From assembly GCA_937982515.1 (NCBI GenBank), contig CALJMB010000326.1, forward strand, positions 1 through 55,822: a DNA stretch of 55,822 bases, given 5' to 3'. Shown here piece after piece: positions 24,895-33,717 of this stretch (within the stretch, counting starts at the first letter, position 1; the number at the start of each line of letters is the position of its first letter). The notes beneath the pieces are model-generated. The model saw only the letters and a list, made by a program, of their open reading frames with translations. It made no database searches and was not told where the DNA came from. A program made the translations under genes and the position numbers. Origin of the DNA: an uncultured Balneolaceae bacterium (GTDB lineage: Bacteria; Bacteroidota; Rhodothermia; Balneolales; Balneolaceae).

Positions 24895-25848
24895 TTACGT
24901 CTTGTTAAAAAGGTGATTCATAACTTCTCCATACTTGCTGCCGTCATCGGGAAAGACGGTTACCACCGTTCCTTCTTCTAGTTCATCTGCCAGTTGCAGC
25001 GCGGCCGCGAGATTGGCTGCGGAAGAAGGGCTCAGTAATAAACCTTCTCTGGATGCAGCCAGCTTTATCGTTTCGTGTGCTGTTTCTGTACCGATACTCC
25101 TGATTTCATCCGGCAGGGTATCATCATATATACCCGGAACGAGGGCTGTTTCCAGGTGTTTCCAGCCTTCCAGTCCATGCATAGGCAGGTCGGGTTGAAG
25201 CGCTATGACACGTATATCCGGATCATATTCTTTGAGGCGCCTCCCCGTACCCACGACGGTTCCGGTAGTGCCCAGTCCCGCTATGAAGTGGGTGACACCG
25301 TACTCCGACTGCTCCAGTATTTCAGGGCCTGTGGTATCGTAGTGAGCTTTCCAGTTACTCTCATTTCCATACTGGTCGGCAAAGAAGTAGGTGTCGGGGT
25401 CATCTTCGAATAGTTGCCGCGCAATTTCCTGAGCCTCGTCGGTTGTACCTGTCATAGAAGTTAAACGGAGATCTACCCCTAACGCTCTTAAAATCCTTTT
25501 TCGTTCGTTTGTGGCGTTTTCAGGCAGGCATAGTGTAACCGGTATGCCCAGCGCCGCCCCGATGTGAGCGTATGCAATACCTGTGTTACCACTGCTGGCA
25601 TCCAGCAACCGTTTACCGGGAATCAGGGCGCCTTGATGAATGGCATCTTTGATAATTCGATACGCCGGGCGCGCCTTGACACTTCCGCCGAATTGCTGCC
25701 ATTCCAGTTTTGCAAATATACGTACCTTCTCATTGCGGTTGATATTAGTGACATGATAGAGAGGGGTACCTCCTATAAAGGGGGCCAGCCGATTGCTTTT
25801 AGCTGCCAGATTAGCCTCTGGATTTTTAATCAGATTAATAGTGTTCAT
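24895..25848 (-). CDS. cysM: PLP-dependent cysteine synthase, CysM/CysK family
   Basis: 317 aa; PLP lysine context GGSVKARPA; SSGNTGIA loop; first gene of the cysM-mec-cysO-moeZ string. Confidence 0.9.
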   Translation of the reverse strand: MNTINLIKNPEANLAAKSNRLAPFIGGTPLYHVTNINRNEKVRIFAKLEWQQFGGSVKARPAYRIIKDAIHQGALIPGKRLLDASSGNTGIAYAHIGAALGIPVTLCLPENATNERKRILRALGVDLRLTSMTGTTDEAQEIARQLFEDDPDTYFFADQYGNESNWKAHYDTTGPEILEQSEYGVTHFIAGLGTTGTVVGTGRRLKEYDPDIRVIALQPDLPMHGLEGWKHLETALVPGIYDDTLPDEIRSIGTETAHETIKLAASREGLLLSPSSAANLAAALQLADELEEGTVVTVFPDDGSKYGEVMNHLFNKT

Positions 25849-25955
25849 TTAAAGTATGCCTTGAGTTGGAAGTTGAGAAAAAGCCCGACGGAGGTTGAAC
25901 TTCAGGATCAGACTTTGTTACCGGTAAGAGAGATAAGTATGGGTAAAACGGTAAC

Positions 25956-26039
25956 TTAACTACAACAACAGCAACAACACGCCGCACAGCAGCAGCGGTT
26001 GGAAGGAAAATAATTTAGTATGTTGGTTGCTGTTTTCAA
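25956..26039 (-). promoter_or_regulatory. Cys-codon-rich leader ORF (27 codons, TTG start) upstream of cysM: (M)KTATNILNYFPSNRCCCAACCCCCCS*
   Basis: Translated by hand from the minus strand; 9 Cys in the last 12 codons (TGC/TGT); stop TAA at 25956-25958; 108 nt upstream of the cysM ATG; aligns in register with the plus-strand leader. Confidence 0.65.
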
Positions 26040-26295
26040 TCTGTAATCGCTTTTAAGCCAGACCAGCCTGGCTATATGAAGTTAATAAAAACTGTGATTA
26101 ATCCAAGGCTAGATGCTGTAAAAAAGGTTTTTCGCCCTTTCGGCATAACCAGGGTTCGCTAAAAAGAGTTCAATTTGGAAAGGAATAATTTTTTTATAAT
26201 TTCTCTTGACATCAATCCTCAGAGTTTATAATCTGTTGGCGGTGCTGAAGAAACCGCTGGCACCAACGTTTTTCATTACACATTTAGTACTATTT

Positions 26296-26412
26296 ATGAG
26301 CTTTCTCAACAACATCCAAAACTTTTTCGTTGCATACATGTGCGCTTGTATGATGTGTATCTGTTGTTGTATGGATACCGTAAAAGGTAGTGGATGGAGC
26401 ATTCTCAAATAG
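26296..26412 (+). promoter_or_regulatory. Cys/Met-codon-rich leader ORF (38 codons, ATG start): MSFLNNIQNFFVAYMCACMMCICCCMDTVKGSGWSILK*
   Basis: 3' part of the 68-aa track ORF 26206..26412; 6 Cys + 4 Met in 12 consecutive codons (26338-26373); followed by antiterminator/terminator elements. Confidence 0.7.
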
Positions 26413-26434
26413 TATATTAAAGGATCTAACTCAA

Positions 26435-26469
26435 AGCCCACTACCTGATACAGGTGGCGGGCTTTTTTT
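26435..26469 (+). terminator. Attenuator terminator AGCCCACTACCT-GATAC-AGGTGGCGGGCT + T7
   Basis: 12-bp stem (one mismatch, one G-U) followed by TTTTTTT; the 5' arm can alternatively pair with GGTAGTGG at 26386-26393. Confidence 0.8.
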
Positions 26470-26559
26470 GTATCTGCGGAAGATCTCCCCCTCCTGTGTC
26501 AGCAAAAGGGCTTTGTGGAATTTTAACTAATCACCACTAAACACAAAGTCAAAACTATT

Positions 26560-27402
26560 ATGGCTGACGTAATAACCAATCAAAAAGTACTGGTAACGAC
26601 CGACTGGGCGGCCGAACATCTGAATGATGAAGGCATCCGGTTTGTGGAAGTCGATGTAAATACCAAATCTTATGACTCCGGGCACATACCGGGAGCTGTA
26701 GGCTGGAACTGGAAAAAAGAGTTGCAGGATCAGCTACGGCGAACCATCGCGTCGAAAGATGATTTCCAGCAATTGCTGAGTAAATCGGGTATCAGCAACG
26801 ATACAACCATTATCCTTTACGGCGATAACAACAACTGGTTTGCCGCCTGGGCCTATTGGCTTCTCAAATACTACGGCCACGAAGATGTGAGAATTCTGGA
26901 TGGCGGGCGGAAGAAGTGGGAAGCGGAAAACCGTGAGTTGACTACCGATGTCCCAGAAGTCAATACAGCAACATATACCATTGACAAAATAAAAGGTGAA
27001 TACCGTGCCTTCCGCGATGATATCGCCAGGAACCTTGAAAACAGTGCCTTCGGCCTGGTGGATGTGCGTTCTCCAGATGAATTCTCAGGCAAAATTCTGG
27101 CCCCCCCGGGACTGAATGAACTTTCCCAGCGTCCCGGGCATATTCCCGGTGCGGCAAATATCCCCTGGTCTCAGGCCGTGAATGAAGACGGCACTTTCAA
27201 GAGCAAGGAAGAGCTGAGAAAGCTGTATGAAGGTCACGGCATCACGCCAGACAAGGAGATCGTTGCTTACTGCCGGATCGGTGAGCGCTCTGCTCACTCC
27301 TGGTTTGTACTCAATGAGTTGCTGGAGTACCCGAATGTGCGTAACTATGACGGTTCCTGGACCGAATGGGGGAACCTCATTGATGCACCTATCGAGAGAT
27401 AG
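26560..27402 (+). CDS. Two-domain rhodanese (thiosulfate sulfurtransferase)
   Basis: 280 aa; active-site loop YCRIGERSAHSWFVL, resembling actinobacterial CysA/SseC-type thiosulfate sulfurtransferases. Confidence 0.85.
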   Translation: MADVITNQKVLVTTDWAAEHLNDEGIRFVEVDVNTKSYDSGHIPGAVGWNWKKELQDQLRRTIASKDDFQQLLSKSGISNDTTIILYGDNNNWFAAWAYWLLKYYGHEDVRILDGGRKKWEAENRELTTDVPEVNTATYTIDKIKGEYRAFRDDIARNLENSAFGLVDVRSPDEFSGKILAPPGLNELSQRPGHIPGAANIPWSQAVNEDGTFKSKEELRKLYEGHGITPDKEIVAYCRIGERSAHSWFVLNELLEYPNVRNYDGSWTEWGNLIDAPIER

Positions 27403-32117: not shown

Positions 32118-33287
32118 CTAGCTCTCCAGCGCTTGTTCCACATCCCCGATGATATCCTCTACGGCCTCAAGGCCCACAGCGATGCGGATGAGGCCCGGAG
32201 TGATGCTCACTTCTCTGCGCTCTTCATCCGACAGCTTGGAATGAGTAGTCGACGCCGGGTGTGTGGCAATGGAGCGGGTGTCTCCCAGATTGGCGGAAAG
32301 TGATATCATGGAGAGGTTATCCAGGAATTTTTTAGCCCTCTCATAACCGCCTTTAATGTTAAAAGTGACAACGCCACCGCCTGATCGCATCTGTTTCCGA
32401 GCCAGATCATATTGAGGATGGCTTTTCAGGAATGGATACTTCACCCACTCTACCTGGTCATGCGATTCCAGAAACGCGGCGAATTGCAGTGCGTTAGCGG
32501 AATGCTTTTCCATACGTACAGGCAGTGTTTCCAGGCTTTTGGAGAAGAGCCAGGCATTGAACGGGGAGAGTGAAGGGCCGGTATGTCGGGTAAAAAACCG
32601 AATCTCTTCTATATATCGAGCCTTACCTACAATAACGCCGCCGATGCCACGCCCTTGACCGTCGATAAACTTGGTGGCGGAATGAACCACAATATCGGCG
32701 CCATATTCCATTGGTTTCTGCAGATAAGGGGTGGCAAAGCAGTTATCGACGATGGTGATCAGGCCGTGTTTATTTGCCAGGCTACAGGCCCATTCCAGAT
32801 CGATAAGATCCAACCCCGGATTAGAGGGTGTTTCAAGAAAAATAATTTTCGTATTGTCCTGAATAAGTTGTTCCCAGGACTCAGGCTGGTCAATATTTAT
32901 ATACGAAAAGTCTATCCCCCATTTAGGGAATACAGAGCTCAAAATCTGATGGGTTGAACCAAAAATCGAACGGCAGGCTATGACATGATCTCCCTGTTCC
33001 AGCAAGGCTGCCATGCTGGAAAATACAGCGGCCATACCCGAGGCCGTAGAAATACCCGCTTCAGCCCCCTCCATCAGGCACATTTTAGCGACAAACTCAT
33101 CGGTGTTCGGATTGGAGTAGCGGCTGTAGATATTTCCATCCACTTCACTGGCAAACATCGCCCGTGCGTGCTCCGCGGAATCGAACACGAAGCTGGATGT
33201 CATAAAAAGAGGAGTGGAATGTTCTCGTTGCCCGGAGCGCCTGGTTTGTGTTCTGATTACCTGTGTTTTTGCCTGCTTATCTGGCAT
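32118..33287 (-). CDS. O-succinyl/O-acetyl-homoserine sulfhydrylase (Cys/Met-metabolism PLP enzyme, MetZ/MetY-like)
   Basis: Start placed at MPDKQAKTQ (Met39), which removes the overlap with osmC; PLP lysine context HSATKFIDGQG; SRYSNPNTDEF motif. Confidence 0.85.
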   Translation of the reverse strand: MPDKQAKTQVIRTQTRRSGQREHSTPLFMTSSFVFDSAEHARAMFASEVDGNIYSRYSNPNTDEFVAKMCLMEGAEAGISTASGMAAVFSSMAALLEQGDHVIACRSIFGSTHQILSSVFPKWGIDFSYINIDQPESWEQLIQDNTKIIFLETPSNPGLDLIDLEWACSLANKHGLITIVDNCFATPYLQKPMEYGADIVVHSATKFIDGQGRGIGGVIVGKARYIEEIRFFTRHTGPSLSPFNAWLFSKSLETLPVRMEKHSANALQFAAFLESHDQVEWVKYPFLKSHPQYDLARKQMRSGGGVVTFNIKGGYERAKKFLDNLSMISLSANLGDTRSIATHPASTTHSKLSDEERREVSITPGLIRIAVGLEAVEDIIGDVEQALES

Positions 33288-33297
33288 ATGGGTGGCC

Positions 33298-33717
33298 TCA
33301 GGATTTGTTGATGGAATAACTGTGAGTGATGACAGCTGTTTTTTCGAGTATCTTTGAAACGGAGCAATATTTACCCAGCGAAAGATCAATCGCGCGTTCA
33401 ACCTTTTTAGGGTCCAGGGTACCTTTTAAGTCGAAATGTATATGAATTTTCTCGAACTCAGAATAGGTGTCTTTTTTCACCCGGTCTCCATCCACAACGA
33501 CCTGCAGGGCGGTTAACTCCTGTTTCTGTTTTTTTAAGATGCCGATCACATCAATAGCACTGCAGCCTCCAACGCCGGCTAATAGAAGCTGCATAGGGCT
33601 AAATCCGCCTTCCAACCCTCCAATACTTCGGGTACCATCTATCCGAATGATTCCGCCTTCTTCATTTTTCGCCTCCATGTGCAGCTCTTCATCGAGCCGG
33701 TCAATTACTATGTGCAT
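33298..33717 (-). CDS. OsmC/Ohr-family peroxiredoxin-like protein
   Basis: 139 aa; two conserved Cys contexts (GGCSAIDV and GKYCSVS). Confidence 0.8.
   Translation of the reverse strand: MHIVIDRLDEELHMEAKNEEGGIIRIDGTRSIGGLEGGFSPMQLLLAGVGGCSAIDVIGILKKQKQELTALQVVVDGDRVKKDTYSEFEKIHIHFDLKGTLDPKKVERAIDLSLGKYCSVSKILEKTAVITHSYSINKS

Follow-up and report, generated by a model that had tools for sequence, protein, structure and literature searches.

Two divergent cysteine-codon-rich leaders between sulfur operons of a Balneolaceae bacterium as probable separate ribosome-mediated attenuators

Leader-peptide transcription attenuators are known in their classical form from trpL, hisL, thrL, ilvL and pheL of Escherichia coli and Salmonella, and Rho-dependent leader control is known from tnaC of the E. 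coli tna operon, which senses free tryptophan through arrest of the nascent peptide at the stop codon. Here, we describe two short open reading frames (ORFs) rich in cysteine (Cys) codons, leader A and leader B, which lie back to back in a 711-bp divergent intergenic spacer (25849-26559) on contig CALJMB010000326.1 of an uncultured Balneolaceae bacterium; the whole analysed stretch of 55,822 nucleotides (nt) is called the window. Leader A precedes the operon rhodanese-sir-cobA-cysH-sirC on the plus strand, and leader B precedes cysM-JAB-ThiS-ThiF/rhodanese on the minus strand.

Cysteine-responsive leader-peptide control has been proven experimentally only in mycobacteria and has been predicted in few other lineages. 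The mycobacterial poly-Cys leaderless ORFs, the 'Cys ribulon', are cysteine-responsive translational attenuators that unmask a downstream ribosome-binding site (Canestrari et al., bioRxiv 10.1101/834739). Candidate leader peptides of cys operons were predicted in Actinobacteria without terminators, and Rho-dependent termination was proposed for them (Seliverstov et al. 2005, PMC1262725). In Rhodobacterales, the uORFC-8-2 motif upstream of cysS has a Cys-codon upstream ORF in a stem that is followed by a terminator, for ribosome-mediated attenuation by Cys-tRNA (Brewer et al. 2021, PMC8632094), and a two-Cys leader also stands before cysS in Deinococcus (PMC4007540). In the literature that we searched, Cys leaders are not described for Bacteroidota or Balneolota. 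The leaders described here would share with uORFC-8-2 the attenuation by a Cys-codon ORF that responds to Cys-tRNA, but that motif contains two Cys codons only, controls a tRNA synthetase gene, is alphaproteobacterial and has no sequence relationship to them.

We consider it likely that the divergent region comprises two separate ribosome-mediated attenuators, each with its own promoter and ORF, in which the segments directly after the start codons serve as arms of RNA helices. The leaders would most likely switch on the sulfur-assimilation and cysteine-synthesis operons at low cysteine. The first-pass annotation, made from the letters of the window, had instead aligned the two peptides from residue 1 and proposed a duplicated bidirectional control region, with a shared prefix N-I-x-N-(F/Y)-F that hinted at common ancestry or a nascent-peptide function. 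It had also placed both operons under one charged tRNA-Cys signal, and this part we find reasonable to infer, since both leaders are conserved, Cys-rich and located with a conserved promoter on one side and a sulfur-metabolism operon on the other.

Both ORFs are genuine conserved leaders. A CysM protein scan of species-representative genomes gave 80 loci, from Balneolaceae (Fodinibius, Aliifodinibius and Halalkalibaculum, 63-72% identity) and many Bacteroidota. Among the 76 loci with enough upstream sequence, 67 have a poly-Cys ORF upstream of cysM, defined as a stop-to-stop frame on the same strand with at least four Cys in six residues that ends at most 450 nt upstream of the gene, while the background predicts 0.009 per locus. 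Leader B is a widespread conserved element upstream of cysM, with a roughly 100-fold positional enrichment of such frames on the coding strand in two phyla. Leader A was found on the divergent strand in 11 Balneolaceae loci, and three more true leaders came from a metagenome pattern scan that returned 11 stretches, which brings the rhodanese-side family to 14 Balneolaceae sequences.

In the window, the frame and the peptide of leader B are as first annotated (Table 1). Its TTG start is credible because TTG, ATG and GTG alternate (mostly TTG) at the aligned position in relatives. A consensus scan offered the same TTG as a -35 hexamer; this was ruled out, as relatives have ATG or GTG there and no downstream in-frame start would be left. 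The stop codon comes one or two codons after the Cys run in the family (one codon after it in the window), the terminal run starts at codon 16-24 with isolated Cys already at codon 13-14 in a few relatives, and the alignment of relatives shows a single UGC at a conserved position inside the UGU run. The N9, Y10 and F11 of the window leader are not conserved in relatives. For leader A, the annotated position of the ORF was correct, but only the first 26 of its 38 residues had been quoted and the conserved tail DTVKGSGWSILK was missed. The start codon of this family is ATG, with GTG in one relative (L083), and its first Cys falls at codon 16-19.

It is very improbable that these ORFs are chance low-complexity products of (TGT/TGC)n, or metal- or redox-binding Cys-rich micropeptides without a regulatory role, even though the peptides are short, unannotated, of low complexity and without a matching Rfam family. 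Chance would not predict the in-frame enrichment upstream of cysM across two phyla, and the alternation of start codons, the placement of stops, the conserved promoters and the covarying helices around both ORFs also speak against either version, as do the poor conservation of the peptide outside the Cys run and the frozen synonymous sites. At gathering thresholds, Rfam matched neither the window nor any of 16 related loci, and its E-value mode gave only chance matches to small RNAs; BLAST of the intergenic region against plasmids found no match.

From its sequence, leader A is a predicted classical four-region transcription attenuator with a new specificity, and the 'shared prefix' of the first-pass annotation coincides exactly with its region 1. 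RNAalifold, applied to 11 and then 14 sequences, finds a 17-pair long-range helix between regions 1 and 2 (alignment columns 34-52 with 110-128), with 86.6% of cells paired and changes on both sides of six pairs among the 14 sequences. The compensatory columns include 36-126 (UA in 6, CG in 4), 38-124 (CG in 8, GC in 4) and also 50-52 with 110-112. For the structure composed of helix 1:2 and the terminator, covariation exceeds that of 500 out of 500 shuffles, and controls slid in the 3' direction pair at 39-52%. The compensatory changes alter amino acids (Y, N, Q or D at codon 6; C-N or T-D in the tail), and by eye a further relative, L088, sets a different region 1 (CAACAUUU) opposite a different tail, AAAUGUU.

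As the antiterminator, region 2 offers GGUAGUGG (26386-26393), which pairs with the terminator 5' arm CCACUACC. Among the 14 sequences, this helix 2:3 has 99.1% and the terminator 3:4 has 98.6% of cells paired, and a divergent leader (L017) keeps the 2:3 pairing at -17.5 kcal/mol with wholly different sequences. The duplex energies in the window are -13.4 kcal/mol for 1:2, -16.6 kcal/mol for 2:3 and -22.5 kcal/mol for 3:4. Within region 2, the codons GGU-AGU-GGA show no synonymous change in the 14 sequences, and their sole change, AGU to AGG in L011, replaces Ser by Arg.

In the proposed mechanism of leader A, region 1 would pair with region 2 when no ribosome is present, and the 3:4 terminator would form. 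A ribosome stalled at the Cys or methionine (Met) codons would be wedged between regions 1 and 2, leaving GGUAGUGG to pair with the terminator 5' arm and allowing read-through, while a ribosome that has moved on to the stop codon would separate region 2 from region 3, and the terminator would form again. Like the trpL-type attenuators, leader A has a short ORF with a codon run for the pathway end product, together with mutually exclusive 1:2, 2:3 and 3:4 helices and an intrinsic terminator before the first structural gene. Unlike them, its predicted regulatory amino acid is Cys (with Met), it carries an extra element complementary to the terminator, and its host is a member of the Balneolaceae without obvious Shine-Dalgarno sequences.

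The sensor zone of the leader A family consists of 49% Cys and 26% Met (15 leaders), compared with 62% Cys and 1% Met in leader B; in the window, leader A has 6 Cys and 5 Met codons (initiator counted) among 38. With Met making up a quarter of the sensor zone, we propose that leader A is probably a bivalent Cys and Met attenuator that responds to both sulfur amino acids, comparable to the multivalent leaders of thr and ilv. The enrichment in Met suggests that both sulfur amino acids act on the operon that produces sulfide, and Cys alone on the CysM/CysO operon. A pyridoxal phosphate-dependent enzyme of Cys/Met metabolism is encoded nearby (32118-33401, Pfam), consistent with this suggestion. 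Met and Cys codons alternate within the sensor zone in the window and in the A-type relatives.

Downstream of the leader A terminator, the 5' untranslated region (UTR) of the rhodanese gene contains a post-terminator element complementary to the whole terminator. Their duplex reaches -30 to -39 kcal/mol with z-scores of -4.9 to -8.6 at 13 of 13 loci (the window, L001, L002, L004, L007, L009-L012, L014, L021, L083 and L088), and the terminator loop covaries with the element, for example as GAUAC/GUGUC, GAAGC/GCUUC and GGCGC/GCGCC. The 3' end of the element, CUUUGUG (26511-26517), has an alternative partner in CACAAAG (26542-26548), about 12 nt upstream of the rhodanese AUG. The element may be a second layer of control, acting on translation or through RNase III.

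Leader B appears to be a variant attenuator. In its minimum free energy (MFE) structure, codons 2-7 pair with the distal Cys codons, and its relatives conserve ACA-GCA-ACA, AAC-AUA and similar codons directly after the start, which are the reverse complement of UGU-UGC-UGU. Duplexes of the first ten codons with the Cys run of the same leader have energies from -6 to -23 kcal/mol in 22 leader B sequences (-13 to -23 in 20 of them), with a mean z-score of -2.0 against composition-preserving shuffles and P < 0.05 in 14 of the 22. Helix 1:2 of leader B was judged by these per-sequence duplex tests; RNAalifold loses it through register slippage in low-complexity columns. The proximal Cys codons (CGCUGC-UGCUGU-GCGGCG, 25980-25997, minus strand) form a local GC-rich hairpin inside the ORF that the terminator scan flagged, and at this site a conserved Ala codon, GCG, breaks the Cys run in most relatives.

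The pairing of the Cys run also bears on whether leader B might work like the mycobacterial poly-Cys ORFs, with a free Cys tract blocking the cysM initiation region until a stalled ribosome frees it. This translational mechanism was demonstrated for Ms5788A of Mycobacterium smegmatis (10.1101/834739). In its favour, most leader B relatives have no canonical terminator, and the MFE folds of L001, L003, L012 and L014 join the Cys run to a GCAACAA-like stretch close to where cysM starts. Over 22 loci, however, the Cys run is no more complementary to the cysM initiation region than are shuffles (mean z 0.04; window z +0.59), and its significant complementarity is to codons 2-7 of the same leader. 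In addition, a transcript of leader B from the predicted promoter would begin about 33 nt before the start codon and would not be leaderless. We therefore regard the mycobacterial type of control as quite unlikely here. What the two leaders of the window do have in common with the 'Cys ribulon' are poly-Cys ORFs before several cysteine-related operons, one of them led by rhodanese, a tRNA-Cys signal that would coordinate separate operons and, for leader B, a Cys tract near the C-terminus. They differ from it in predicted 5' UTRs of 33-55 nt, in a Cys run without complementarity to the downstream start, in the terminator-based design of leader A and in belonging to a different phylum.

For the attenuator that we prefer for leader B, the second element is hairpin P1, which starts at the first base after the stop codon and whose closing pair covaries (GC in 9, AU in 3, GU in 2) according to RNAalifold. 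A large-loop hairpin starting -3 to +2 nt from the stop is present in 21 of 24 Balneolales leaders, including distant members with unrelated arms. As P1 adjoins the stop codon, any ribosome at the last Cys codons or at the stop would melt it. The spacer from the leader B stop to cysM (25849-25955 on the minus strand, with 21 related spacers) has a C/G ratio of 1.4-2.8 in 22 of 22 cases; these spacers contain 26% C and 14% G compared with 25% and 25% in the cysM coding sequence, a likeness to Rho-utilisation sites that is only suggestive. Codons 2-7 would pair with the distal Cys codons and close the ORF beside its weak TTG start, and P1 would be melted only after a ribosome has crossed the Cys run. 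Opening of P1 would then lead to premature termination, either at the weak hairpin P2 or by Rho on the C-rich, G-poor spacer, and with a ribosome stalled early in the run, P1 would stay closed and read-through would follow.

Unlike the trpL-type attenuators, leader B has no recognisable 2:3 and 3:4 competition: a canonical terminator with a competing antiterminator was not found, and RNAalifold recovers P1 only. It resembles the actinobacterial candidates in its Cys run next to the stop, the lack of an obvious terminator and the pyrimidine-rich downstream spacer, although its lineage and sequence are different and neither a covarying hairpin abutting the stop nor a helix between N-terminal codons and Cys run has been described there. 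A possible analogy is tnaC, in that the position of the ribosome at the end of the leader B ORF would decide access to a C-rich termination site directly downstream; unlike in tnaC, the sensor of leader B would be codon starvation, and Rho is suggested only by the excess of C over G. By eye, a second copy of a P1 arm able to build a terminator occurs only in L017, and a CUGGCAA partner of the P1 3' arm only in the group of L001, L002, L007 and L021, so neither is general. The sequence TTACCGGTAA was considered as a palindromic DNA operator and ruled out, since only its RNA-pairing half is conserved and the stem covaries.

The poly-Cys leaders that stand before cysM in Bacteroidota possess a tail as well as a strong canonical terminator (a GC-rich stem with U6-8), with the tail complementary to the terminator 5' arm (L022, L027, L032, L048, L052, L062, L064-L066, L070, L072 and L078). 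These leaders look like classical Cys attenuators, which are absent from Rfam 15. Seven loci of Saprospiraceae, Chitinophagales and other Bacteroidota (L026, L033, L036, L040, L055, L056 and L074) have two poly-Cys small ORFs one after the other, at about 100-450 nt before cysM, which may be tandem attenuators.

We next consider the in-register resemblance of the two leaders. The identities listed in the first-pass annotation (N6, I7, N9, F11, C16, C18, C21 and C23-25, with F/Y at position 10) are all correct, with 11 identities in 27 positions. The match in the window is real but marginal, and it was chosen after the fact. Residues 2-15 contain four identities (P = 0.02 in the fixed register and 0.12 for the best of nine registers, by residue shuffles) with a BLOSUM62 score of P = 0.004, and 22 of the first 45 nt are identical in register (P = 0.002 by base shuffles, 0.012 by codon shuffles). 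The six matches of Cys to Cys lack significance (P = 0.29), as almost every residue of leader B in that stretch is Cys. The flanking DNA is not similar on the promoter side and is barely similar downstream.

The similarity is not conserved in relatives, where it stands at chance level, an outcome that the first-pass annotation had itself named as contrary to its proposal. In nine other genomes with both leaders, 11-15 of the 39 bases in codons 2-14 are identical, compared with 11.4 +/- 2.8 expected from composition, and the window, with 20 of 39, shares the top value among all 100 pairs of A and B leaders. The mean identity per 39 bases is 13.8 within the same genome (all ten genomes) and 13.3 across genomes, so that leaders of one genome resemble each other no more than leaders of different genomes do. 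Amino-acid profiles built without the window overlap by 0.110 in register, 0.122 at a shift of +1 and 0.104 at a shift of -3 (column permutation P = 0.095), and nucleotide profiles do not prefer register 0. The two families have a single residue in common, Ile7 (0.58 profile overlap), for which leader A uses AUC or AUU and leader B always AUA, and the start of Cys at codon 16 in both leaders is specific to the window.

An inverted duplication of the control region, with the leaders as diverged copies and the prefix acting as a nascent peptide, for example through stalling in the exit tunnel, is unlikely in view of these results. It would fit the residue and base identities of the window, the common Ile7 and the presence of a conserved segment directly after the start codon in both leaders. 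The chance-level identity in the nine other genomes, family profiles that fit no better in register than shifted, the differing Ile7 codons and the lack of conservation of N9, Y10 and F11 in leader B all speak against it, and the flanks, tails and termination platforms of the two leaders differ. Leader A starts with ATG and has a mixed Cys/Met sensor, a structured 12-codon tail and a canonical terminator, and leader B starts with TTG and has a pure Cys run, a stop 1-2 codons later and a hairpin abutting the stop (P1, followed by P2) without a canonical terminator. Each leader also occurs alone: leader B is found without leader A at about half of the Balneolaceae loci and at all Bacteroidota loci, and L088 has leader A before ORFs sized like rhodanese and sulfite reductase without a divergent cysM or leader B, while L083 and L086 carry both. 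Since each occurs alone and their architectures differ, the leaders are best seen as independent, separable modules, each tied to its own operon. Even if true, a duplicated bidirectional control region would change the picture little.

A role of the prefix as a nascent peptide is likewise not supported, because its codons are arms of RNA helices, which covary with the tail through amino-acid-changing compensatory substitutions in leader A and are complementary to the Cys run in leader B. The constraint would act on the RNA rather than on the peptide, as synonymous positions are frozen (GGU-AGU-GGA in leader A; AUA and the single UGC in leader B). Read in this way, the N-I-x-N-F-F likeness is a product of RNA-folding constraint and an unusually good chance match in one genome, not of duplication. 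A/C-rich arms must pair with G/U-rich partners, which would bias the prefix codons to AAC, ACA, CAA, CAC and AUH (Asn, Thr, Gln, His and Ile). The complement of a Cys run gives, in frame, codons for Thr/Ala, Asn/Ser and Gln, which would account for the N-termini rich in Asn, Thr, Gln and His in both families and in the Bacteroidota leaders. The N6-I7 of leader B likewise falls within an RNA arm, one that pairs with the Cys run and not with a tail.

Several observations weigh against the reading of the region as two separate attenuators. The regulatory codons of leader A sit in the 1:2 loop and not inside region 1 as in trpL-type leaders, so the blocking of helix 1:2 by a stalled ribosome is a steric argument without overlap of the footprint. 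The antiterminator arm is near-invariant in the main family and shows no covariation there, its support coming essentially from L017. For leader B, the output step, termination on P1 opening by Rho or at P2, is a guess. A hairpin at the P2 position is present in relatives, but with weak stems and, in about half of them, a poor U-tail; no alternative pairing that links P1 to P2 was found, and folds with a masked ribosome footprint show no switch, as P2 forms in every state. In addition, the 22 identical bases out of 45 and the shared Ile7 leave some room for distant common ancestry.

As a more tentative extension, which we hold to be possible though on balance doubtful, the two leaders would be mechanistically distinct cysteine attenuators that form a 'Cys ribulon' of Balneolota and Bacteroidota, with the post-terminator layer and the output of leader B by Rho or a weak terminator included. 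The post-terminator element would then couple the attenuation decision to the translation or processing of the rhodanese-sir mRNA, and the hairpin at the leader B stop would report clearance of the poly-Cys run by the ribosome. Sensing by Cys leaders is probably very widely used upstream of the CysO-dependent cysM in Balneolaceae and Bacteroidota, and in Balneolaceae a Cys leader is also found upstream of the sulfite-reduction and siroheme operon. This provides a testable model of sulfur-amino-acid regulation for phyla in which almost nothing is known about it, and the presence of a classical and a non-canonical attenuator in one intergenic region makes a natural pair for comparison. It also calls for caution, as a 'peptide motif' that is conserved in a leader ORF can be the imprint of an RNA helix.

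Table 1. Coordinates of the leaders, their predicted RNA elements and promoters, and the flanking genes in the window
Feature	Coordinates	Strand	Sequence or content	Basis
Leader A ORF	26296..26412 (ATG 26296, stop 26410-26412)	plus	38 amino acids, MSFLNNIQNFFVAYMCACMMCICCCMDTVKGSGWSILK	sequence; conserved in 14 Balneolaceae sequences
Leader A sensor zone	26338-26373	plus	codons 15-26, Cys and Met mixed	sequence and family composition
Leader A region 1 (anti-antiterminator arm)	26309..26327	plus	codons 5-11, N-N-I-Q-N-F-F	RNAalifold helix
Leader A region 2	26382..26400	plus	codons V-K-G-S-G-W-S	partner of region 1 or of terminator 5' arm
Leader A intrinsic terminator (regions 3 and 4)	26433..26469	plus	AAAGCCCACUACCUG-AUA-CAGGUGGCGGGC then U7, 15-bp stem	terminator scan, RNAalifold
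Post-terminator element, rhodanese 5' UTR	26478..26517	plus	~38 nt	complementary to whole leader A terminator
Predicted leader A promoter	26206..26234	plus	TTGACA (26206-26211), 17-nt spacer, TAATCT (26229-26234)	direct reading; T-run upstream
Leader A 5' UTR hairpin	26240-26265	plus	GGUGC...GCACC	sequence
Two-domain rhodanese	26560-27402 (AUG at 26560)	plus		Pfam assignment
Leader B ORF	26039..25956 (TAA stop ends 25956)	minus	27 amino acids, TTG start, MKTATNILNYFPSNRCCCAACCCCCCS, nine Cys codons	sequence; relatives
Leader B region 1	26021..26034	minus	codons 2-7, AACAGCAAC.AACA	MFE structure; complementary to distal Cys codons
Leader B region 2 (distal Cys-codon run)	25967..25979	minus	UGUU-GUUGCUGUU	partner of region 1, MFE structure
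Leader B hairpin P1	25917..25955	minus	GUUACCG / 25-nt C/U-rich loop / CGGUAAC	RNAalifold; starts at first base after stop codon
Leader B hairpin P2	25875..25916	minus	AAAGUCUGAU...GUCGGGCUUU + UUCUC tail	weak candidate terminator, putative role
Predicted leader B promoter	26079..26106	minus	-35 TTGGAT (26106-26101), 16-nt spacer, -10 TAACTT (26084-26079)	conservation
Leader B 5' UTR hairpin	26057-26072	minus	GCCAG...CUGGC	covaries across relatives
cysM (PALP)	24895-25848	minus		Pfam assignment

By Pfam, the minus-strand operon encodes, in order, CysM, a JAB/Mec-type protease, a ThiS/CysO-type carrier and a ThiF-rhodanese activating enzyme, and the plus-strand operon encodes rhodanese, sulfite reductase (sir), uroporphyrinogen methylase (cobA), PAPS reductase (cysH) and a siroheme-synthase module (sirC).

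The predicted promoters of the two leaders are back to back and sigma-70-like; judged from their hexamers, the 5' UTR would measure about 33 nt in leader B and about 55 nt in leader A. The leader A promoter was not listed by the consensus scan; the pattern TTGAC(A/T)-17/18-TA(A/T)T(A/C/G)T is conserved in most A-type relatives (8 were checked hexamer by hexamer, with L001 and L021 unresolved). For leader B, L001, L002, L004 and L007 were checked, and all conserve TTG(G/T)AT-16-TA(A/C)(C/T)TT. The 5' UTR hairpins of both leaders are conserved in relatives in their presence and not in their sequence. No shared operator is evident between the two promoters. A semi-conserved (A)AAnnGTTCAA-like motif does lie between them at about 26150-26175, seen by eye also in L001, L002, L007, L014 and L021, and it could be a transcription-factor site for both promoters.

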